A stretch of DNA of 64,000 bases, from positions 32,001 through 96,000 of the IMG/VR virus record IMGVR_UViG_3300045988_161245. One strand, written 5' to 3'. Every line of letters begins with the position of its first letter. Position 1 is the stretch's first letter. The stretch comes from a virus. Shown piece by piece: positions 4,950 to 54,293 of the stretch. Under the pieces are notes generated by a model. It was not told where the DNA came from, made no database searches, and saw only the letters and a program-made list of their open reading frames with translations. The translations under genes were made by a program, and so were the position numbers.

Positions 4950-5114
4950 TGAACAAAATATCCATATCGAGAATTGAAATCCTCACGGATATTTCTTACT
5001 GCTTCATTGTATATGCTTTCATGGTTATTTAACTCACTACTCGCAGATCCTTGTATACTCCACAGTCGTAAATTCCCGACTAAGCCATCGGTACATACTT
5101 ACTTTTGCTTTTAT
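4950..5114 (-). ncRNA. candidate TnpB guide-RNA (omega/reRNA) scaffold
   Basis: A 165-nt noncoding gap lies immediately 3' of the tnpB stop. It is GC-richer than its surroundings and has stems such as AGTCG...CGACT. TnpB omega RNAs are known to derive from the 3' end or right end of the element. Confidence 0.35.
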
Positions 5115-6287
5115 TTATGCAATTTCGTAAGCTATCGCATCTCTTAAATTAAGTGCTGCATTATAATCTCTATCAGCATAATATCCACATTCGCAAATAT
5201 ATTCTCTGTCAGAAAGTTTTAAATCTTTCTTAATACATCCACATTCGTGACATAATTTGCTTGATGGAAACCACCGATCCACAATTCTTAATTCGATTCC
5301 TAATTCTTTGCATTTTTCAATAAGCTTTAATCTGAACTCATAAAACTTCTGTGATGCAACTGCTTTAGAGAGATGTTTATTCTTCATCATTCCTTTTATA
5401 TTAAGATCTTCAATAGTTATATAAGATGGTTTGGTTTTCACTATCTCTGTTATTGTTTTATTAATATAATCGGTTCGAATATTAGTTATTCTTTGATAAA
5501 TTTTCTGTACCTTTAAAACTTGTTTTTGAATATTCTGTTTAGTAGCTGCTCCTTTATTGTTTTTGTTTCGTTGTTTATAACTTTCGTATTTTCTCGAAAG
5601 ACAACGTTGTTCTCTTTTTAATTTCTTTTTTAGCTTTTTAAATTTTTTTGTTTTATTAATATTTTTCTTTACAGTACCATCGCTTATTACTGCAAATTCC
5701 TTTATACCTAGATCAATTCCTAAACCAAAATCATTTAAAATAGCTTTATCTTGTTCTGGAACATCAACTAAAACAGAAATATAATATCTTTCTGCTTTCA
5801 TAGATATAGTTCCACTTTTAATTACTAATCCTGATTTAGTTGTTGGAATATAACCATTTTCTTTAAGCCTGACCCAACCTAATGTAGGAACTTTTATACG
5901 ATGCCTTTCACACCATATAACCGACTTACTATCGGTTTTTACAAAATACATTTTTACATCAGATTTGTTTTTCTTTTTAAATTTGGGGAATTTACTTTGA
6001 TTTTTGAAGAATCGTTTAAAAGATTTGTCTGCATTCATTATGCTTTGCTTGACAGATTTGGAGCTTACTTCTTTTATCCATAGATAATTAGGATTTTCTT
6101 TTAGGAATACATTATTTAACCATTTAGAAAAATCCATTCCTGAAACAAATATTTTTTCTTTTTTATACATCTCTATATTATGTGCAATATAGAAATTATA
6201 AATGTATCTACATGTCCCAATAGTTTTATTTATTATTTGTTTCTGCTCCAATGTCGGATTTATCTCCGTTTTGAAGCTTTTTAGCAT
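5115..6287 (-). CDS. tnpB: TnpB-like RNA-guided endonuclease
   Basis: 390 aa with [11 protein letters not shown] (RuvC-I D), YITIEDLNIKGM (E), CHECGCIKK...YICECGYYADRDYNAALN (Zn finger plus RuvC-III D). Confidence 0.9.
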   Translation of the reverse strand: MLKSFKTEINPTLEQKQIINKTIGTCRYIYNFYIAHNIEMYKKEKIFVSGMDFSKWLNNVFLKENPNYLWIKEVSSKSVKQSIMNADKSFKRFFKNQSKFPKFKKKNKSDVKMYFVKTDSKSVIWCERHRIKVPTLGWVRLKENGYIPTTKSGLVIKSGTISMKAERYYISVLVDVPEQDKAILNDFGLGIDLGIKEFAVISDGTVKKNINKTKKFKKLKKKLKREQRCLSRKYESYKQRNKNNKGAATKQNIQKQVLKVQKIYQRITNIRTDYINKTITEIVKTKPSYITIEDLNIKGMMKNKHLSKAVASQKFYEFRLKLIEKCKELGIELRIVDRWFPSSKLCHECGCIKKDLKLSDREYICECGYYADRDYNAALNLRDAIAYEIA

Positions 6288-11650: not shown

Positions 11651-12673
11651 TTAATCATCTCCATATAAATCTTCTACTGCGTCAGCAATTTCTCTTCTCT
11701 GCTGAACTGTATCATCCAAATATTTCTGTGTTGCTGCTAAACTCTTTTGTCCAAGTAATTGCTGTACCGCTCTAGCATTACCGGTTTTTAAATAATAATT
11801 CGTTCCGGTTGAACTACGCATTGTATGTGGGACAATTCTTTTTTCTTTATTAATGTCACCGGCATATGCTCTTAGTATCCTTCCAACTGTTTTTTGAGAA
11901 ATTCTACCAGACTTATTTGAAATAAATAGCGCAGGACTTTCTACTCCATTTTCTCTAACATATTCATTTCGCTTCTGAACCCAACTTTGAAGTATCTTAA
12001 TTGTACCATCACTGAGGCGGACATGCCTTGGTTTATTTCCCTTTTCAATAACACTCAAAGACTTGTCTTCCCAATTAATATCATCAATATTAATTGATAT
12101 TATTGCAGAAACACGCAGAGCCTTGTGGAATCCAAGGTTAATTATAGCTTCGTCTCTCTCATTCCACTGAGAAAGATATAATCTACTTCTTTTAGTGTTT
12201 CCGGAAGATACATTTTTTTCAATCTCTTTTACCTCATCAACATCTAGGTATACTTTTTTCTTCATTCTCTCATTACTTGGAGTTTTAATTTTTCTCATTG
12301 GATTTTTACTGATATGATCCCCATCTTCCAAAAACTTAAAAAAGCAATTTAAAGAAAAATATCTAATATATTTATAAGAATCAGAAATTTTTCCATTTTT
12401 CATAATTATATGATTATCATCGTCTACAATATACTTTCTTATAGTTTCTATATTTAATCTTCCAATATCATCTATAGTTTCCGTTGGATATCCAGAATCT
12501 TTTAGATAATGTACTAACCTTATTACATTATTGATATAATTTAATCGTGTCTTTGCTGTTTTATCATCTGCAATCATAAATACATTAAACAATTCCATGT
12601 ATTCTGGTTCATTTTTTAGGAGCCGATTAATGTTATTTATATACTTAACTTCAATCTCCATTCTACCTATCAT
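11651..12673 (-). CDS. tyrosine recombinase / phage integrase family
   Basis: ALRVSAIISINIDDI (Arg box) and HTMRSSTGTNYYLKTGNARAVQQLLGQKSLAATQKY (H-x-x-R ... Y). Confidence 0.8.
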   Translation of the reverse strand: MIGRMEIEVKYINNINRLLKNEPEYMELFNVFMIADDKTAKTRLNYINNVIRLVHYLKDSGYPTETIDDIGRLNIETIRKYIVDDDNHIIMKNGKISDSYKYIRYFSLNCFFKFLEDGDHISKNPMRKIKTPSNERMKKKVYLDVDEVKEIEKNVSSGNTKRSRLYLSQWNERDEAIINLGFHKALRVSAIISINIDDINWEDKSLSVIEKGNKPRHVRLSDGTIKILQSWVQKRNEYVRENGVESPALFISNKSGRISQKTVGRILRAYAGDINKEKRIVPHTMRSSTGTNYYLKTGNARAVQQLLGQKSLAATQKYLDDTVQQRREIADAVEDLYGDD

Positions 12674-31917: not shown

Positions 31918-32056
31918 TTACCTTACCTCCGTTTTTAATTCATCAGCGTATTATATGCTTCATCCAATGAGCAACTTAACCCAATCATTAACATCATACA
32001 TTCGTGGGCAGTTTCTTTAATATATCATGTTTTTTCTTCTGCGGTTAAATCTCTTT

Positions 32057-42301: not shown

Positions 42302-43552
42302 ATGATAACTGTAATTGATTCTATCATGGGATCTGGTAAAACCAGTTGGGCAATTCAACACGTTAATGAAGCTGATTACTGTAATGATCGTTTTCTTTAT
42401 ATAACTCCATTCTTAGATGAAGTAAAACGTATTATGGATAAAACGGATGTCGATTTCTTCCAACCACAAAACAGAGGAAAGGGCAAATTAAATAATATCA
42501 ATATGTTATTTCAGAAAGGTTCTAATATTGCTTCTACCCACGAACTATTTAAAAATTTTGATGAAAATACTCGATCTAACATAAGAGAAATTTCACAAAC
42601 ACTTAATTACACTCTTATTCTTGATGAGGTATTAAATGTAATTGAACCTTATACAGAATTAAAACAAGGTGATTTACGAATTCTTAAGCAAGGCGGTTGG
42701 ATTACAATTGACGAAGATGGCTTTGTTATATGGAATGAAAAAGAATATAAACTGGATAGCAAATATAACGACATTAAACAATTAGCAATCACAAAATCAC
42801 TGCTATGTATTAATGACACTATTCTTCTTTGGAGATATCCACCAGAAATTTTTTCTTATTTTAAAAATATTTATATTCTTACATATATGTTTGATGCAAG
42901 TATTTTAAAATATTATTTTGATGTATATCATATCGACTATACAGTAAAAAGTATTATACTTGAAAATGGATTTTATAAAATTGTAGATTATTATAAACCA
43001 GATACAACTAAATATCAGGATATCATTAATATTTACGAAGGTAAACTTAATGAAAATATTCCATGTAAACTTACATCATTTTCAAGTAGCTGGTTTGATA
43101 CTGCAAATAAAAATTATACAGATAAATTAAAAAATAACATTTACAATTATTTTACAAATATTATTAATTCTTCATCAAAAGATATTATGTGGACTTGTTT
43201 TAAGAAAGCAAAAAACAAACTAAAAGGTAAGGGATATACAAAACAGTTTGTTCCATGTAATTGTAGATCAACAAATGATTATAATGAAAAATCTACATTA
43301 GTTTATTGTTGCAATATCTTTTTTCATCCAGGAATAACTAACTTCTTTTCAAAACACAATTTAACATTAAATGCAAATAAATATGCTTTATCAGAAATGA
43401 TTCAATGGATTTGGAGAAGTAAAATAAGAAATGATGAAAAAATTAATATTTACATTCCTTCTGTCCGTATGAGAATGCTTCTCAAAGAATGGTTAAAATT
43501 AGATGATGAGAAAATTAATGAAAAAAAGTTTTTAGGAAGTCAAACTTCCTAA
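42302..43552 (+). CDS. P-loop NTPase (helicase/ATPase-like)
   Basis: Walker A DSIMGSGKTSW and Walker B YTLILDEVLN. Confidence 0.6.
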   Translation: MITVIDSIMGSGKTSWAIQHVNEADYCNDRFLYITPFLDEVKRIMDKTDVDFFQPQNRGKGKLNNINMLFQKGSNIASTHELFKNFDENTRSNIREISQTLNYTLILDEVLNVIEPYTELKQGDLRILKQGGWITIDEDGFVIWNEKEYKLDSKYNDIKQLAITKSLLCINDTILLWRYPPEIFSYFKNIYILTYMFDASILKYYFDVYHIDYTVKSIILENGFYKIVDYYKPDTTKYQDIINIYEGKLNENIPCKLTSFSSSWFDTANKNYTDKLKNNIYNYFTNIINSSSKDIMWTCFKKAKNKLKGKGYTKQFVPCNCRSTNDYNEKSTLVYCCNIFFHPGITNFFSKHNLTLNANKYALSEMIQWIWRSKIRNDEKINIYIPSVRMRMLLKEWLKLDDEKINEKKFLGSQTS

Positions 43553-43687
43553 AATTGAAAAATTAGGGCTTTCGATGCCAATAAAATAAAGGGATCTCAA
43601 TTTTGATTCCTTAAAAGAAAAAATAAAAAAATTTATAAAAAGAGCTATATAAAAATAAAACCAATTTTATACAATCAAACCAATTTC

Positions 43688-43948
43688 GAACGAACAATTT
43701 TGAAGCGTTAGCGAAAAATTGTGAAGTGACTCCAAATGAACGAAGCTTTAGCGTAGTGAATGCGGTGAAGCACTGTCGGAACGACAGGATAGTTAATTTA
43801 AAATATTTGATTATAAATATTTATTATAAATTTGGATTATACTTTACTGGTGTTCCACCAGGTACTGCCGCACTCACTTCGCTTACGCTACGTTCATTTG
43901 TCATCACTACGCTATATGTTTCGCTGCGCTTCACATCTAGCTTCGTTC
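43688..43948. repeat. composite imperfect inverted repeat (about 85-bp arms) around an AT-rich spacer; origin-like
   Basis: The left arm 43688-43772 and the reverse complement of the right arm 43862-43948 share TGAAGCG, AGCGAAA, AAATGAACG(A/T)AGC, AGCG(T/A)AGTGA. GAACG(A/T)AGC boxes occur in both orientations. The spacer 43790-43850 is almost pure A/T. Confidence 0.75.
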
Positions 43949-44227
43949 TATTTGATTTTATTATTTATTATCTATTTTTATTGTCAATATCATTATCTAT
44001 TCAGATAAATAAATTCCAACATAACTCACAACTAAATAGAGAAGAAATTAATAGTCAGGTGTGAAATAACACATTTGCACTTTTTGTGAATAAAAGATTT
44101 TTCTATTAAGAAGAATTTTATATAACCTACTACCCTTCAGCCCTTCACATTTAGTAGGTTATGCAACTTATCAACCTCGCACAGAAAGGATTAATACCAA
44201 TTATGTTAAAAGGAGTAAACACTAAAT

Positions 44228-44527
44228 ATGAATACAGAAGTAAACACAGACAACGTTGCACTTACACAGAGATTATCATCTAAGACTACTAAAAATTATT
44301 ATACAGGCGGTACATTTCCTGCTATACCATCTCGTGAAGAATTTCATCGCTATGCATCAAATGTATTAAATTTATATGCTTTTGAGACTGATTATCCCCC
44401 ATTTCCTAGTTGTAATATTAATGCTGCAGCTTCTTCTATTGGATGGACAAAAAGTAATAATAAAAATAAGGGAAATAAATACAAATTTAAATCAACTAAA
44501 AATTCTACTAAGAAAGATCATCAATAA
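44228..44527 (+). CDS. hypothetical protein with lysine-rich tail
   Basis: AAAGGAG SD precedes the start. Confidence 0.6.
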   Translation: MNTEVNTDNVALTQRLSSKTTKNYYTGGTFPAIPSREEFHRYASNVLNLYAFETDYPPFPSCNINAAASSIGWTKSNNKNKGNKYKFKSTKNSTKKDHQ

Positions 44528-44533
44528 TGTAAG

Positions 44534-47317
44534 GTGGTGATTATCATTAGTGAATTTGGAATTAAAATTAAAAATATCAGTGCTGGTACATTATATGATG
44601 TTAATTTAGGCACAAGAGATTATTTCTCATACACTGAAGCAATGCTTAATAATAGTTTATTTTCTGCTTTTCTTATAAAGAATGGTCTTAATGTATATAA
44701 AGGTGAATCTACTAGAGATATTATTTGCTTAGACTTTGACTTTGGTACAAGATCTTATGAGGATGAGCATAAACGAATTGAGCAGTTGTATAAAAATTCT
44801 GATGGCGAATTAAAGGAACGTCTTAAATACACTTTGGAGAAAGTTGAGAATAACAAGGATCTCTATGATGAGAAAAAGCGTGAGCAGATCAGAGATAAAT
44901 TCTACAACGAAGGTGTAGATGTTACTTATAAAACTAAGAATAAAGATGGCACTATTAAAAGTGAAGAAACAATTCACTATGAGATGTTGTTTCGAACCAG
45001 TGCTAAAGCAAAGCTTGGACAGGTTATCTTTATAAACTCTGAACTTTATGAAGTGGCTTACGAATGGTTAACTATCGGACTTGGAAAACTAATGACAGAT
45101 GACAATGCAAAAATTGTTGAGATGTCTGCCTATGCTCCACTTACTACATCTACCATCGTTGGAACTAAGTATATTCCTGTAGAGGATATTCTCATTCTTA
45201 GGGACCAAGATTCATTTTTTAAGACAATGGCTAACATTGTTCGTGCAGAAGATTACGTGGACTCTAAGGGTCGAATTTGTAAGAAATGTGTCGTAGACAA
45301 GAAGGTTACCGAAGTCAAGAATACACTTTGGGATGGCATGGGACTGATTGAAGCTGATTATTTTAAAGACTGCAGAAATGCTTATAATCCGGATTGGACT
45401 GTTAAGATTAATGGCATGGCTTTAATGAGACATCATTTATTTAAGATGTGTGGTTTTAAATCTCATATACAGTTATTTTTTAAGGATTGGTGTGAGAAAA
45501 CCGGTAATGATTATGAAACTTACCAGGTCCAAGACATGTTTGGTCATTGGCATTATTTGAAAGACATTAAGATTATCACTACTGACAACGCCATCAAATG
45601 GAAAAAATTTAAGGATTTAATGGGCGGCTCATTAGAATCTGCATATGAGTATTGGTGCAATAAGGTAAATGAAGATGGCAGCGTGTTCGGTATTGTAAAA
45701 ACCGATCATCCTAGTAAACTTGGTGAATATCAACAGCTCAGTTATCAGATGGTTAATACTCTCCCATGTACCAAAGATGATGTAAGGGATATTGCAAGCA
45801 CCAGTATTGAATATGTGGAGTTACTGAAGCAGGATAATAATGAGTTTGAGAAATTCTTAAGAAAAAATGCTAATGAGGTAAACCACTATGAGATGATGGC
45901 TGATTTATATGATCACAACCATGAATTTGGCAATAGTACATTTTTCAGACATGAGAAGTCAAAAATTATTTCCGCATATGTACATAAGCTTAGAAAAGGC
46001 AAGATTGTTGTGAACGGAGATAATTTAACTGTTTGTGGTAATCCATACGCTCTTCTACTCTATTCTGTTGGTGAGGATTTTACAAAAGATCCTACCCTTC
46101 AACCAGAATCTGGAACTATTCAATGTTATACAACAAGATTTAAACATGATGAATTTCTATGTGCATTTCGCAATCCGCATAATTCCCCAAATAATATTTG
46201 TTATTTTCACAATGTTTACAGTGATGAAATGGAAAAATACTTTGAATTTTCTTCAAATATTGCTGCAGTGAACTGTATTTGTACTGATGTACAACCACGT
46301 TTAAATGGTTGCGATTTTGACAGTGACTTCGTTTTAGCCACAAATCAGCCTACTATGGTAAGATGTGCAGCTTATTGCTATAAACACTACCCTACTATTG
46401 TTAATGATTTAAAAGAAAGTGGCGTGGTTTATAAAAGTAACAAATCAGAATATGCACGTATGGATAATACATTTTCTAAATCAAGAATCGGAATTGGATA
46501 TTCTAGTAATTTGGCACAGCTTGCCATGACTTATTACTGGAGTGAATTACAGGGTGATAGTCCAGATCCAAAAAGACTTGATGAGCTATCAGATAATTTC
46601 GTAATTCTAAGCGTTCTTGCTCAAGTAATAATCGATAGCTGTAAAAGACTCTATGAAATTGATGGAATTAAAGAGATTGATCGTATTAGCAAACTTCCAT
46701 GTATGACAATGAAAAAAGAAGTAATTGACAAAAATGGAAATAAAAGAATGAAAAAGTGTGACTTCCCTGAATTTATGAAATACACAAGAGAAATTGCTGT
46801 TACTAAGGATGGTAAAGAGCTTCCACAAGAAGATATTGAGGAATCCAAGAACAAATTAAAAGGACGAATCAATAAAGATCTTATATGCCCAATGAACTGG
46901 TTGCAGGAATGGTTGGATAAAATCCAGGGAGCAAGCACTAAGGTTACTACTCCTACTGAGAATTTCTTTATTAAGATGACAGGTGAAGGAAATTATAATC
47001 AAATGACCAAAATTATGACTACCATAGAAGAATATGATTCATATATAAAAAATATGCAATTATTATGTAGTGATAACGAAACATACTATGATTTAATTGC
47101 ACAAAAAGCGGCAGACATGGTGAAGGAAATTTCAAAAATGAAAATTAGAAATGTTGTCACTATTAATCGTCTTATTGAAATCAGTTTAGGAATAAGTACA
47201 GAAAAAGGTAGATCGAGTTATAGAAAAAGTAATCCACAAAAATATGCTAGAAAAACACTTAATCTTTTGTATAAATATAGCAAAGAAAAATTTTTAAATA
47301 ACTTTGTTTGCGAATAA
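44534..47317 (+). CDS. single-subunit two-barrel RNA polymerase, YonO / RdRP-like
   Basis: 927 aa. LNGCDFDSDFVLATNQ (DNA 46313-46327) matches the DxDxD metal site, cf. NADFDGD of beta-prime and DbDGD of cellular RdRPs. AFRNPHNSPNN upstream matches the R-x-P-x-x-H element. The start is probably downstream of the track GTG (see findings). Confidence 0.6.
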   Translation: MVIIISEFGIKIKNISAGTLYDVNLGTRDYFSYTEAMLNNSLFSAFLIKNGLNVYKGESTRDIICLDFDFGTRSYEDEHKRIEQLYKNSDGELKERLKYTLEKVENNKDLYDEKKREQIRDKFYNEGVDVTYKTKNKDGTIKSEETIHYEMLFRTSAKAKLGQVIFINSELYEVAYEWLTIGLGKLMTDDNAKIVEMSAYAPLTTSTIVGTKYIPVEDILILRDQDSFFKTMANIVRAEDYVDSKGRICKKCVVDKKVTEVKNTLWDGMGLIEADYFKDCRNAYNPDWTVKINGMALMRHHLFKMCGFKSHIQLFFKDWCEKTGNDYETYQVQDMFGHWHYLKDIKIITTDNAIKWKKFKDLMGGSLESAYEYWCNKVNEDGSVFGIVKTDHPSKLGEYQQLSYQMVNTLPCTKDDVRDIASTSIEYVELLKQDNNEFEKFLRKNANEVNHYEMMADLYDHNHEFGNSTFFRHEKSKIISAYVHKLRKGKIVVNGDNLTVCGNPYALLLYSVGEDFTKDPTLQPESGTIQCYTTRFKHDEFLCAFRNPHNSPNNICYFHNVYSDEMEKYFEFSSNIAAVNCICTDVQPRLNGCDFDSDFVLATNQPTMVRCAAYCYKHYPTIVNDLKESGVVYKSNKSEYARMDNTFSKSRIGIGYSSNLAQLAMTYYWSELQGDSPDPKRLDELSDNFVILSVLAQVIIDSCKRLYEIDGIKEIDRISKLPCMTMKKEVIDKNGNKRMKKCDFPEFMKYTREIAVTKDGKELPQEDIEESKNKLKGRINKDLICPMNWLQEWLDKIQGASTKVTTPTENFFIKMTGEGNYNQMTKIMTTIEEYDSYIKNMQLLCSDNETYYDLIAQKAADMVKEISKMKIRNVVTINRLIEISLGISTEKGRSSYRKSNPQKYARKTLNLLYKYSKEKFLNNFVCE

Positions 47318-47339
47318 AATTACGGTTAAACAAAAATTG

Positions 47340-47373
47340 ACCCTTAATAAAGTCAATAAAAATAAGGGTTTTA
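47340..47373 (+). terminator. intrinsic terminator
   Basis: Stem ACCCTTA / TAAGGGT followed by TTTT. The loop is large. Confidence 0.5.
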
Positions 47374-47596
47374 CAAGGATGCAACAATTACCACGTATAG
47401 GGAGAATAACGTGAAAGCACAGAGTTGTGTTAGTAGGCCCTCGCGCTATTGCCGAGTGCGCGTTATAAATATGGGTTCGCGAATTAAAATGTACAAACAG
47501 CTCACAGGGGTGAGGTGAGTGTATGGGTGACCATTCACAAATTGTGACTGCAGCTGGGCTAGGTTACGTAACTGGTCCAGTTGTGGTTTAAATTGA

Positions 47597-47670
47597 CGCA
47601 GGATAGAGAAGTTTGGTATCTCGTCAGATTCATGCTCTGAAGATCGACAGTTCAAATCTGTCTCCTGCAA
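47597..47670 (+). tRNA. tRNA with anticodon CAT (Met / initiator-like / possible Ile2)
   Basis: Hand-folded 74-nt cloverleaf: acceptor CGCAGGA/TCCTGCA (C1-A72 mismatch), D stem GAGA/TCTC, anticodon arm TCAGA-TTCATGC-TCTGA, T arm GACAG-TTCAAAT-CTGTC. Confidence 0.8.
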
Positions 47671-47707
47671 TTATTATCCTCTATTACGAGGAAATTTAGA
47701 ACGAAAG

Positions 47708-47893
47708 GTGTGTATTGTTATTAAAACAATTACAAAAGAGGGTATTCAGTCCCTTATTGATAAGAAAATCTTAAAGCCATACTCAGGTGGGTACATGAAT
47801 TCCAGAGGGTACCATGTGGGGTATTATAAAACCTGTGGAAACAAGAGGTATATTGAGGATTACTATGCAGATAGAGTGGAGAAATTAAAATAA
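47708..47893 (+). CDS. hypothetical small protein
   Basis: 61-aa track ORF. Its GTG lies within the AAAGGTG SD, and an in-frame ATT at 47720 sits at canonical spacing. Confidence 0.45.
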   Translation: MCIVIKTITKEGIQSLIDKKILKPYSGGYMNSRGYHVGYYKTCGNKRYIEDYYADRVEKLK

Positions 47894-47954
47894 GAAAAAT
47901 ACAACTGAATATATCGCATAAGGCGAAATACTTAAAGAAAGGTGGTTATTTACC

Positions 47955-49172
47955 ATCGAAACAAAAGTAAAATTTTATGATACAAATGCTGTTTTAGCAT
48001 TACAAAAAAATGTATTAGACAGTTATTTTTACATTAGCTCTACTACCCTTCAAGAATTAGAGCATATTAAAGTATCAAGAAATAAAGACGAAGAAACAAA
48101 ATATAAATCACGTAAAATATTACATATTTTGGATGAAAATACTGACAAGTATAAAGTTGTTATAACAGACAATTCTATCCTATCTATTATTGAATCAAAA
48201 GGTCTTGAAAATTCCCCAGATAATCAGATTTGTGCATGTGCTTCTACAATTGAAAATGTTATTTTTGTTACAAACGATCTTGCATGTAAAACAATTGCTA
48301 AATGGATTTTTGGTTTAGATGTTGAAAGTGCGATTGAAAATAATTTTGATTATTATAAAGGATACCAGGAAATAAGTCTGTCAGAAGAAAAGATGGCTTA
48401 TTTTTATGAACATCTTAATGAAAATACATTAAATCTTTTGATAAATGAATATGTACTGCTTAAGGATGAGAACGGAAATGAAGTAGATACATTAAAATGG
48501 GATGGTGAAGCTTACCAGTCAATTAGATGTAAACCATTTAAATCTAATATGTTTGGGACATTAAAACCATTAGATAATATTCAGGCATTTGCAATGGATT
48601 CAATTAACACTAATGATATTACAGTATTATACGGTAAGGCTGGTTCAGGTAAAACTACTCTTCCGCTTAATTATATTATGCAAGAAATTGAAAAGGGTAG
48701 ATTTAAAAAATGTTACATTATCTATTCTTATGAGCCATTAAAAAATGCAAAGACGCTTGGATTTGAAAAAGGTGATCATCTTACAAAACTTCTTTATTAT
48801 GGTTCTATTGGAAATATTCTTGCATCAAAATTTGGTGATATGCAGCAAGTAGAATATATGGTTGAACGTGGAATGTTAGATATTATTCCAACTGCAAATA
48901 TACGAGGTATAGAGCTTGAGTCGGATAGTATTTGCCTCGTAACAGAATCTCAGAACTTGGATGTTTATACTTTAAAAACAATAATTCAACGTTGTAAATC
49001 TGGATGTAAACAGATTTATGAGGGAGATATTATTGAACAGAAAGATACTAATATTCAAAATATCGGAATGAATAGACTTATTGACGTGTTTAAAGGTAAC
49101 GAAAGTTTTGGATGTGTCAAATTGAAAAATAACTATAGATCAAAGCTTAGTGAGCTTGCGGATCTTATGTGA
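47955..49172 (+). CDS. phoH: PIN-domain PhoH-like ATPase (PhoH2/YlaK type)
   Basis: Walker A VLYGKAGSGKTTL. The frame is open upstream of the track start (TTG 48129) and there encodes a PIN N-terminus ETKVKFYDTNAVLAL. AAAGGTGG plus 9 nt precedes ATC 47955, and no ATG, GTG or TTG is available. Confidence 0.75.
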   Translation: METKVKFYDTNAVLALQKNVLDSYFYISSTTLQELEHIKVSRNKDEETKYKSRKILHILDENTDKYKVVITDNSILSIIESKGLENSPDNQICACASTIENVIFVTNDLACKTIAKWIFGLDVESAIENNFDYYKGYQEISLSEEKMAYFYEHLNENTLNLLINEYVLLKDENGNEVDTLKWDGEAYQSIRCKPFKSNMFGTLKPLDNIQAFAMDSINTNDITVLYGKAGSGKTTLPLNYIMQEIEKGRFKKCYIIYSYEPLKNAKTLGFEKGDHLTKLLYYGSIGNILASKFGDMQQVEYMVERGMLDIIPTANIRGIELESDSICLVTESQNLDVYTLKTIIQRCKSGCKQIYEGDIIEQKDTNIQNIGMNRLIDVFKGNESFGCVKLKNNYRSKLSELADLM

Positions 49173-52076: not shown

Positions 52077-53033
52077 ATGGCAGTTGAACGAAGTAAACCT
52101 ATATTATTATATGACGCAGAAAAAGCTAAACAGGTTAATCCGGAAACATTAAGATTGTTTCAAAAATATCAAATTGATATGTCAATTAGAGACCTATCAG
52201 AAAAGACAATTAGGGGTTATAATTCTGATTTAATGCAGTGGTTCATTTATATGTATAATAACCAATTTAATCTATCTGTTCTTGAAGCAAAAGAAGAAGA
52301 TCTTGAAGAATATTATTTCTGGAGAAAACAGCAAGGTAATAATGTTAATCGTCAGAAACGTGTCATGTCTTCTATTTCCGCTTTCTATAAATTTCTTCGT
52401 AAGAAAAAACTCATTACAGAATCCCCAATGGAATTTATTGATAGACCAAAACAAGGACAACCTGTTGTTGTACAAACTTATTTAAAAAAGGAAGAAGTGC
52501 AATTTATGAGAGAAAAACTTTCTGAATATGGTGATGTTCAGTTACAGGTTTATGCTTTTTTATCTCTCACTACAATGGCCAGAGTTAATGCAATTGCTCA
52601 TTTGAAATGGGATCAAATCAATATGGAAGAACGTATTTGCTCTGATGTGCTTGAAAAAGAAGGTAAAATTGTAGAGCTTTCATTTAGTGAAGAAACTCGC
52701 GATTATATGAATGAATTACGTAAATATAGAGAAGACAATAATATAGATGATTATGGTTGGGTGTTCAAAACGGCTTATACAAATGAGAAACAATGTGTAA
52801 GTAATGATACTCTAAATGAATGGTGTAAAAAAATTGGTAATATGATTGGGCATCCTACATTACATTGTCATGATTGGAGACATAGCTATGCTAGTCTGCT
52901 TAAGGAAAATGGGGCAAGTTTAGAAGATGTTTCAGAAATGCTTAATCATGCAGGAACTGATGTTACTAAGAAATATTACATAAAGGTAGATCATTCTAAG
53001 GTTAGAAAAATTAAGGATTCAATCAAAATTTAA
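52077..53033 (+). CDS. tyrosine recombinase (XerC/D-phage integrase family)
   Basis: N-terminal SAM-like core-binding region, ARVNAIAHLKWDQI (Arg box), HCHDWRHSYASLL...LNHAGTDVTKKYY (HxxR...Y). ATG 52077 follows AAGGAAGTGA. Confidence 0.85.
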   Translation: MAVERSKPILLYDAEKAKQVNPETLRLFQKYQIDMSIRDLSEKTIRGYNSDLMQWFIYMYNNQFNLSVLEAKEEDLEEYYFWRKQQGNNVNRQKRVMSSISAFYKFLRKKKLITESPMEFIDRPKQGQPVVVQTYLKKEEVQFMREKLSEYGDVQLQVYAFLSLTTMARVNAIAHLKWDQINMEERICSDVLEKEGKIVELSFSEETRDYMNELRKYREDNNIDDYGWVFKTAYTNEKQCVSNDTLNEWCKKIGNMIGHPTLHCHDWRHSYASLLKENGASLEDVSEMLNHAGTDVTKKYYIKVDHSKVRKIKDSIKI

Positions 53034-54202: not shown

Positions 54203-54293
54203 GGCAGGTATAGCTTAATTGGTAAAGCGTCATATTCAAATTCTGGAAAACATACAAATGAAGACTCCAGGTTCGAGTCCTGGTGCACTGCCC
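54203..54293 (+). tRNA. aberrant tRNA-like element, about 90 nt (class-II length; anticodon uncertain, CAA most consistent)
   Basis: Clean D arm GCTT-AATTGGTA-AAGC and T arm CCAGG-TTCGAGT-CCTGG. The acceptor pairs only GGCAG/CTGCC, with extra or bulged bases. The anticodon stem TCATA/TCTGG has a mismatch. The variable region is 20 nt. Confidence 0.45.

Follow-up and report, generated by a model that had tools for sequence, protein, structure and literature searches.

Putative AUU, AUC and AUA translation starts and a remodeled initiator-type tRNA at one locus of a gut phage family

Can a phage start several neighboring genes at codons other than ATG, GTG and TTG, and does the transfer RNA (tRNA) that it carries among those genes have a part in it? 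The question is raised by a locus (positions 44531-47960) in IMG/VR virus record IMGVR_UViG_3300045988_161245, of which we analyzed positions 32,001 to 96,000, an AT-rich, phage-like stretch of 64,000 nucleotides (nt) that we refer to as the window. A first-pass annotation of these letters had noted that three rightward genes, encoding an RNA polymerase (RNAP)-like protein, a small open reading frame (ORF) and a PhoH protein, lack a usable canonical start and flank a tRNA(CAU) with initiator-like features; it had proposed that the genes begin at AUU or AUC and that the tRNA might be linked to this mode of initiation. The sequence facts behind the proposal were all found where it had placed them. 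The explanation that we hold to be probable on balance is that starts at AUU, AUC or AUA (AUH) behind strong Shine-Dalgarno (SD) sequences attenuate the output of these genes, and that the tRNA is a remodeled initiator on which the starts do not depend.

Relatives of the locus were obtained by scanning IMG/VR with the 923-amino-acid (aa) RNAP-like protein, which yielded 80 loci with a homolog (54-99% identity) on contigs of up to 250 kb; a megablast search of the window against cultured and deposited phages returned no close match. SD strength was computed by hybridizing the 3′ end of the 16S RNA to the sequence that precedes each candidate start. A heuristic start caller gave 11% AUH in unrelated, mostly GC-rich viral loci, calls that look like false positives; because the caller over-calls AUH in such loci, evidence on starts was taken from alignments, and AUH rates based on the caller alone were dropped. 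ARAGORN called three tRNAs in the window and Rfam added a fourth, degenerate one. The tRNA under study was aligned with nine phage relatives and E. coli tRNAfMet (11 rows), and the E. coli reference sequence was checked in all 5,426 E. coli genomes.

The first of the three genes encodes the 923-aa protein and would start at ATT 44546 (44546-47317, + strand). Its frame extends from stop to stop over 44528-47317, and the sole canonical codons before the conserved N-terminus, GTG 44534 and GTG 44537, both lie within the SD-like AAGGTGGTGA, as the first-pass annotation had pointed out. The extended SD AAGGTGGTGAT (44531-44541, +), which contains both in-frame GTGs, forms a duplex of −14.2 kcal/mol; ATT 44546 lies 8 nt past GGTGG, and 4 nt separate GGTGAT from the start. 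This architecture resembles that of the start used earlier as a control for the method, at which, as claimed, AGGTGGTGA is followed after 4-5 nt by ATG 2634 on the minus strand. Homologs confirm the ATT start: the codon aligned to ATT 44546 in 79 loci or related contigs is ATG in 44, TTG in 16 and ATT in 19, and it always precedes SE(F/Y)GIKIKNI. The ATT loci represent at least four lineages, and in two groups of relatives (L011/57/59 and L051-54/58) the frame holds no canonical codon from its upstream stop to the ATT.

The product of this gene has no Pfam or PDB sequence match. It matches PHROG 8308 (unknown function) and, distantly, a gene of Enterocloster phage PMBT24 annotated as RNA-dependent RNA polymerase (RdRP), and its distant relatives infect Enterocloster and Clostridium. 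We take its DFDSD motif to be consistent with a two-barrel polymerase, and the RNAP identity is putative. Two further observations concern this gene. Upstream of it lies a 99-aa ORF (44228-44527, +) in the same frame, separated by a single TAA located 19 nt before the ATT. In close relatives, insertions of 284 nt to ~1.3 kb, with lengths that are not multiples of three, occupy one site in the gene (window 46608-46621; L048:8064-8347, L007:8064-9370, also L050 and L062). An intron or a small mobile element may account for them; Rfam returned no intron match.

The second gene is a 57-aa ORF of unassigned function (47720-47893, +) that would begin at ATT 47720, located 9 nt downstream of AAAGGTG (47704-47710, +; duplex −10.4 kcal/mol), an SD that includes the in-frame GTG 47708. 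Both the position of that GTG and the alternative ATT had been reported by the first-pass annotation, and the homologs bear them out. The start is AUH in 26/26 distinct family contexts (ATA 17, ATT 8, ATC 1), and among outgroups or more distant homologs the aligned position holds TTG in L102 and ATG in L154. In many relatives the GTGA of the SD puts a TGA in frame, 9 nt ahead of the AUH codon, a TAG stands 15 nt upstream of the start in L051, GGG replaces GTG in L029 and L204, and in at least 10 lineages no canonical codon follows the upstream stop. The small ORF is never AUG across family phages whose RNAP-like protein, the only protein compared, falls to ~55% identity. Because AUG has not been regained although it is one mutation away from ATA, ATT and ATC, it can be argued that selection maintains the weak start as such. 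Searches with four homologs of the small ORF gave no Pfam or PHROG match from which a function might be assigned.

The third gene encodes a 405-aa PIN-PhoH protein (47955-49172, +) with a putative ATC start, in which PIN_4 spans residues 9-116, PhoH residues 203-393 and PHROG 2765 residues 4-404. Its frame is open from 47922 (stop 47919-47921), and the first ATG, GTG or TTG is TTG 48129. Translation must begin upstream of that codon because the conserved PIN N-terminus is encoded before it, Pfam PIN_4 being aligned from residue 9 and PHROG 2765 from residue 4 of the ATC-started protein. ATC 47955 sits 9 nt past AAAGGTGG, and its SD, GAAAGGTGG (47937-47945, +), has a duplex energy of −13.1 kcal/mol and a spacer of 9 nt; here too the first-pass annotation had read both the N-terminus and the spacing correctly. 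The pattern 'GGTGG + 9 nt + ACC ATC G' recurs in L037 and L041, whose PhoH protein is 46% identical.

The other SD-led starts of the window (~82) are ATG or GTG, nearly all of them ATG and few GTG, and their SD duplexes range from −9 to −16 kcal/mol, an interval that includes the values given above for the AUH genes. None of the three AUH genes has a canonical start with its own SD; the AUH codon comes 4-9 nt past a strong, partly extended SD, at a spacing equal to that of ATG genes with the same SD. They are also three consecutive rightward genes, an arrangement with P ~8e-4 if 3 of 85 genes are drawn at random. It could be objected that translation begins at GTG 44534 or 44537, GTG 47708 and TTG 48129 and that the AUH codons are internal isoleucines, given that two of the three genes have in-frame GTGs in the window and that some small-ORF homologs have GTG or ATG 9-15 nt before the AUH codon. 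However, the window GTGs have no SD of their own and belong to the SD itself, and in relatives the ..GTGA motif yields an in-frame TGA or the GTG is missing (GGG in L029), evidence on which GTG starts inside the SD were rejected. Homologs, moreover, carry ATG or TTG exactly at the AUH position, and TTG 48129 has no SD (+0.5 kcal/mol) and would cost the PIN domain the region of its first catalytic Asp. We regard canonical starts in these genes as scarcely credible.

Sequencing error, which the first-pass annotation had thought would be implied by homologs with ATG at these positions, was rejected as well, since more than 10 contigs, derived from different samples, agree in these ATT and ATC codons. 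Across related phages the features of the start region are either kept or replaced by ATG or TTG at the exact aligned position. Because the homolog alignments place the starts there, we conclude on sequence evidence that the three genes begin at AUU, AUU and AUC, respectively, and that this is a family-wide trait.

Starts at AUH are in fact broader than first noted and appear to be a habit of the whole phage family. The exonuclease gene has ATG 50112 in the window, and its homologs vary among ATG, TTG and ATT at one position; genes for a 477-479-aa protein, a ~195-aa protein and others have AUH starts with strong SDs in many lineages. Throughout the family these starts cluster in the gene block after the RNAP-like gene, with up to five of them within a 15-kb locus in relatives. 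As judged from sequence, the AUH starts described here add to a known mechanism a phage case that is new, conserved and unusually dense.

What kind of tRNA, then, lies among these genes? The gene (47597-47670, +; called by ARAGORN, Rfam 58.5 bits) has C1xA72, G2:C71, C3:G70, A11:U24, a CAU anticodon, A73 and the T-loop UUCAAAU. Its anticodon stem is of the form au/GC/au (A29:U41, G30:C40, A31:U39), so that only G30:C40 is left of the three consecutive G:C pairs (29:41, 30:40, 31:39), and its loop is UUCAUGC, with U32, G37 and C38 instead of C32-U33-CAU-A37-A38. The C1-A72 mismatch, A11:U24, the missing three-GC stem and G37 had all been described by the first-pass annotation as they are. Elongator tRNAs need a paired 1:72 for EF-Tu binding; an unpaired 1x72 permits formylation and blocks EF-Tu binding, and G2:C71 and C3:G70 are determinants for the formyltransferase. 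In the alignment, the 1x72 mismatch is CxA or CxU in 9/10 family sequences (the exception being L102, with U1-A72), and G2:C71, C3:G70, A11:U24 and likewise G30:C40 are invariant in 11/11 sequences. Cells of the cloverleaf are paired in 99.5% of cases, and 11 pairs show compensatory changes.

These data bear on whether the gene encodes an elongator tRNA-Met, or a tRNA-Ile2 with lysidine at C34 that reads AUA in an AT-rich genome. Its CAU anticodon and ARAGORN label (tRNA-Met) would suit such a role, AUA is common in AT-rich phages, and other relatives carry a tRNA-Ile(UAU) in the same region. Against this stand the conserved CxA or CxU at 1x72, the replacement of pyrimidine11:purine24 by A11:U24, the invariance of G2:C71, C3:G70 and G30:C40, and the gapless 72% identity to E. 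coli tRNAfMet (53/74 positions); neither a Watson-Crick 1:72 pair nor pyrimidine11:purine24, as expected of an elongator, is present in the window tRNA. An elongator identity is accordingly very unlikely in our judgment. Because the initiator determinants are invariant and covariation is found elsewhere in the molecule, the tRNA is best read as one of initiator type that folds and is under selection, and not as an elongator Met or Ile2 tRNA, in keeping with the initiator-like character first ascribed to it. In E. coli an initiator can function with G30:C40 alone (PMC5389676). The phage tRNA differs from E. coli tRNAfMet at 21 positions; 18 of the differences replace G or C with A or T, and only A37G and A38C run against this drift, which points to selection for G37-C38.

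The first-pass annotation had called a phage-supplied initiator-like tRNA linked to non-AUG initiation unusual; initiator-type tRNAs of phages as such are no rarity, their pattern having >120 matches in IMG/VR. Most of the viral initiator-like tRNAs sampled (n=121) lack G29:C41, and about a quarter have non-canonical loops. The UUCAUGC/CUCAUGC loop is found in 6/121 of them and in ~55 IMG/VR contigs sharing the D-arm, and the G37-C38 loop reaches phages whose RNAP-like protein is only 27% identical. A search of 185,579 cellular genomes gave 113 matches to this loop, mostly by chance; ~12 are genuine, with complementary stems, and come mostly from short contigs of gut or rumen metagenome-assembled genomes and from an Enterocloster lavalensis scaffold. 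The cellular carriers are gut or rumen Clostridia-type assemblies (L303, which is Enterocloster lavalensis KCTC 15153 scaffold_46; L229; L223/L250; L237; L246), and they may be prophages or phage fragments that hint at host range. As far as literature searches show, the G37-C38 tRNA is an undescribed phage-associated initiator variant.

Do the AUH starts depend on this tRNA? The first-pass annotation had stressed that it lies exactly between the AUH genes, which is correct as to position; the significance attached to it does not hold, since the slot between the RNAP-like gene and the small ORF (window 47318-47720) is a hotspot for tRNA cassettes. In relatives it contains initiator-like Met, Ser, Pro, Lys, Asn, Thr or Ile(AAU) tRNAs, or none that was seen, and AUH starts accompany all of these, occurring in essentially every related lineage whatever tRNA fills the slot. 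The tRNA is found between AUH genes because the site is a cassette slot and not because the genes depend on it, which suggests that its location is coincidental. The clearest exchange is that between L057, with a tRNA-Ser(UGA), and L059 and L011, with a G37 initiator-like tRNA: the flanks are 96-99% identical, the swap (L057:10462 vs L059:10230) ends exactly at the tRNA 3′ end, and all of them share the same five AUH starts. AUH starts are present on ~43 related contigs (up to 206 kb, mostly 78-175 kb) that have no initiator-like tRNA with this type of D-arm over their whole length, and in distant phages that carry the G37-C38 tRNA nearly every gene begins at ATG or TTG. Judged on contigs rather than whole phage genomes, the special tRNA and the AUH starts thus fail to co-occur across lineages, and the functional link that had been proposed between them finds no support.

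The same proposal can be cast in mechanistic form: the phage tRNA would be a dedicated helper on which the AUH genes depend or by which they are boosted, its G37 pairing with C (or wobbling with U) at mRNA position −1 and so replacing the lost third codon-anticodon pair. There is precedent in E. coli, where tRNAfMet A37G favors mRNAs with C(−1) and G.U gives a small gain (PMC10018350), and C precedes both the AUU of the RNAP gene and the AUC of PhoH. C stands at −1 of 40% of AUH starts vs 5% of ATG starts in the family, an 8-fold excess with a corresponding depletion of A (Fisher p ~1e-13 over the window and L001-L080, whose contexts are not independent). That G37 and C38 are the sole substitutions opposing AT drift, and that the loop is kept in phages with so divergent an RNAP-like protein, can be put down to the same cause. 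Yet the C(−1) excess is the same whichever tRNA is nearby, amounting to 8/23 starts (35%) with G37, 9/18 (50%) with A37 and 23/60 (38%) with none seen. Co-variation between position 37 and mRNA position −1 was consequently rejected, no lineage-specific signal having been found, and coupling of the tRNA to AUH starts is unsupported because the excess is equal with G37, A37 or an absent tRNA. L046 and L048 have A37 and yet identical C-AUU and C-AUC contexts, L057 retains its full set of AUH starts without this tRNA in the slot, the distant G37-C38 carriers have few AUH starts, with T or A at −1, and the ~43 AUH-using contigs do without this tRNA type. A helper role seems unlikely to us, and a literature search found no paper linking phage initiator tRNAs to non-AUG starts.

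Three relatives carry, on the same initiator scaffold, an AAU anticodon (loop GUAAUAA; L017:9386-9462, L029:9386-9462, L204:299-375) that is not present in the window. The ATT-start small ORF follows this tRNA at a distance of 45 nt and has lost its upstream GTG in two of the three contigs. The tRNA also has a C27xA43 mismatch; the gene may be in decay, or it may be a natural equivalent of initiators engineered with mutant anticodons. It invites a wider conjecture, in which a phage-specific U32-G37-C38 initiator class of large gut phages, with G30:C40 and the initiator identity of acceptor and D-arm retained, would re-tune start choice during infection in favor of AUH genes with C or U at −1, and the AAU sublineage would be a natural non-methionine initiator matched to AUU. 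We give this little credence; if true, a gene set with AUH starts would be translated preferentially or only during infection.

If not start choice, the remodeled loop may serve another end. The changes (U32, G37, C38, U39, A29:U41) could have been selected only for resistance to a tRNAfMet nuclease of the host or a competitor and have nothing to do with start choice, a reading that competes with the helper role over the function of the tRNA and is compatible with the explanation we favor. The VapC enzymes of enteric bacteria and Leptospira cleave tRNAfMet between A38 and C39 (PMC4105405), and both residues are changed here, A38C and C39U flanking the cleavage site; phage tRNAs are commonly altered in the anticodon loop at nuclease sites (PMC10264068). 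The non-canonical loops of roughly 1/4 of the sampled viral initiator-like tRNAs, and the near confinement of G37-C38 variants to phage DNA, agree with this. Against it, the loop changes have a second consequence: the A37.(G29-C41) triple and the C32-A38 pair mark an initiator-specific conformation (PMC2528185), and the substitutions abolish both. An effect on initiation itself is equally possible because the loop changes remove these contacts. We consider nuclease resistance as the only role of the loop to be possible, if tentative.

In the explanation that we favor, the ordinary fMet-tRNA would initiate at AUH codons with a third-position mismatch in the P-site, the strong SD would hold the 30S subunit on the site, and the weak codon would lower output, so that the enzymes and the small protein would be kept at low, probably IF3-sensitive, levels. 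Over evolution, the RNAP-like, exonuclease and PhoH genes would toggle among ATG, TTG and AUH, and the small ORF would remain fixed at AUH family-wide. The tRNA would be a functional, phage-encoded initiator that should be formylatable and excluded from elongation, with an anticodon stem-loop that selection would have remodeled, in all likelihood to set it apart from the host initiator, as in the evasion of a nuclease that cuts tRNAfMet. Scans of the locus and window add no further components to this scheme: promoter and terminator scans gave background level only, an Rfam E-value search of 43500-48000 had the tRNA as its sole match, with no other structured RNA, and among ~85 window ORFs scanned none encodes an IF3-like protein, formyltransferase, deformylase or TilS.

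Several points weigh against this explanation. Attenuation and IF3 sensitivity are argued by analogy, from precedent, anatomy and conservation. We know of no tRNAfMet-targeting nuclease for the host of this phage. Plain attenuation leaves the C(−1) excess unexplained, and C(−1) would pair with G37 (PMC10018350). An initiator tRNA, of the G37 type or other, may lie elsewhere in the genomes of the relatives that appear to have none, and an AAU variant on the initiator scaffold adjoins an AUU-start ORF.

The putative AUH starts have practical consequences. Gene callers restricted to ATG, GTG and TTG will mis-start or truncate such genes. In the window the PIN N-terminus of PhoH is lost in this way, and annotations of a large family of gut phages, 80-250 kb in size, would suffer likewise. 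That weak starts are conserved suggests that phages of Firmicutes dose early enzymes at the level of translation, the small ORF being the clearest case. The G37-C38 initiator class, in turn, offers a natural test case for the roles of position 37 and of the 3GC pairs, and bears on −1:37 pairing in nature and on the replacement of the host initiator against tRNA-targeting defenses.

Some other elements were recorded in the window and its relatives. Between the tRNA and the small ORF lies a short hairpin of unassigned role (TCCTC-tattac-GAGGA, 47677-47692, +), followed by GAAAtttAG; in relatives its arms differ yet are self-complementary at the same place (CCTAC/GTAGG, CTGC/GCAG). The fourth, tRNA-like sequence (54204-54287, +; Rfam 36.5 bits, not called by ARAGORN) has an anticodon loop of 18 nt vs 3 in the model and a weak acceptor stem, and may be degenerate or interrupted. 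ARAGORN also reports four-base-anticodon tRNAs in relatives (acag in L051:10083, L053:10084 and L058:10054; ttat in L068:12998, L070:12834 and L076:13448). A RAGATH-18 RNA (64.8 bits; 4996-5066, −) lies directly downstream of a transposase-like gene (5115-6287, −; PHROG 506), and the two look like an insertion sequence element with its associated RNA. The small ORFs of the minus strand within 1597-37887 (−) include one MazF/PemK-like toxin, a LexA-like and a MerR-like protein, and the window has two tyrosine recombinases, listed with the coordinates 11651-12673 (−) and 52077-53033 (+).

How, then, does this locus compare with known systems? The closest parallels to the AUH starts are bacterial and have been mapped by experiment in Firmicutes: an AUA or AUU start, preceded by a strong and extended SD close to it, is used by infC, cvfC1, ccpN and citZ of S. 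aureus and by ccpN of B. subtilis too (bioRxiv 10.1101/2025.06.19.660503). Such starts give ~10-30% of AUG output under discrimination by IF3 (bioRxiv 10.1101/2025.06.19.660503; PMC9723500). Like these sites and the AUU of E. coli infC, the phage AUH codons are conserved and lie at a short, fixed distance past an extended SD. Unlike them, they are denser, affecting three consecutive genes, make use of all three AUH codons including AUC, toggle among ATG, TTG and AUH in several families and show a strong C(−1) bias.

The tRNA shares with bacterial tRNAfMet C1x72, G2:C71, C3:G70, A11:U24, the CAU anticodon, A73 and the T-loop UUCAAAU, and differs from natural tRNAfMet in its au/GC/au stem and in having U32-G37-C38 in place of C32-A37-A38. 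As in the 3GC-poor initiators of mycoplasmas and alpha-proteobacteria, the essential middle pair G30:C40 is kept. In mycoplasmas, changes in the 3GC pairs go together with a frequent use of non-AUG starts (PMC5389676; PMC11775629), whereas the phage tRNA coexists with a presumably normal host initiator and no co-evolved IF3 or uS9 can be invoked. In quadruplet pairing between position 37 and mRNA position −1 (Hollerer and Jeschek 2023, PMC10018350), an engineered A37G favors C(−1); the phage G37 is natural and two of the neighboring AUH starts have C(−1), but that system is engineered E. coli with AUG starts, and the phage −1 bias does not track position 37. Nuclease-evading phage tRNAs (van den Berg et al. 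2023, PMC10264068) resemble the phage tRNA in their changes around the cleavage site and in a loop enriched in phage DNA. The same work reports that phages whose enteric hosts bear VapC for the most part do not encode tRNAfMet (PMC10264068), in contrast to this phage, which encodes an initiator-type tRNA. Initiators with anticodons other than CAU have been engineered, among them i-tRNA(AAC) (bioRxiv 10.1101/2021.05.25.445580); classical mutants have GAU, GAC or CUA. The AAU scaffold of L017, L029 and L204 resembles them, its anticodon being complementary to AUU, and differs in being a natural allele and in its C27xA43 mismatch.

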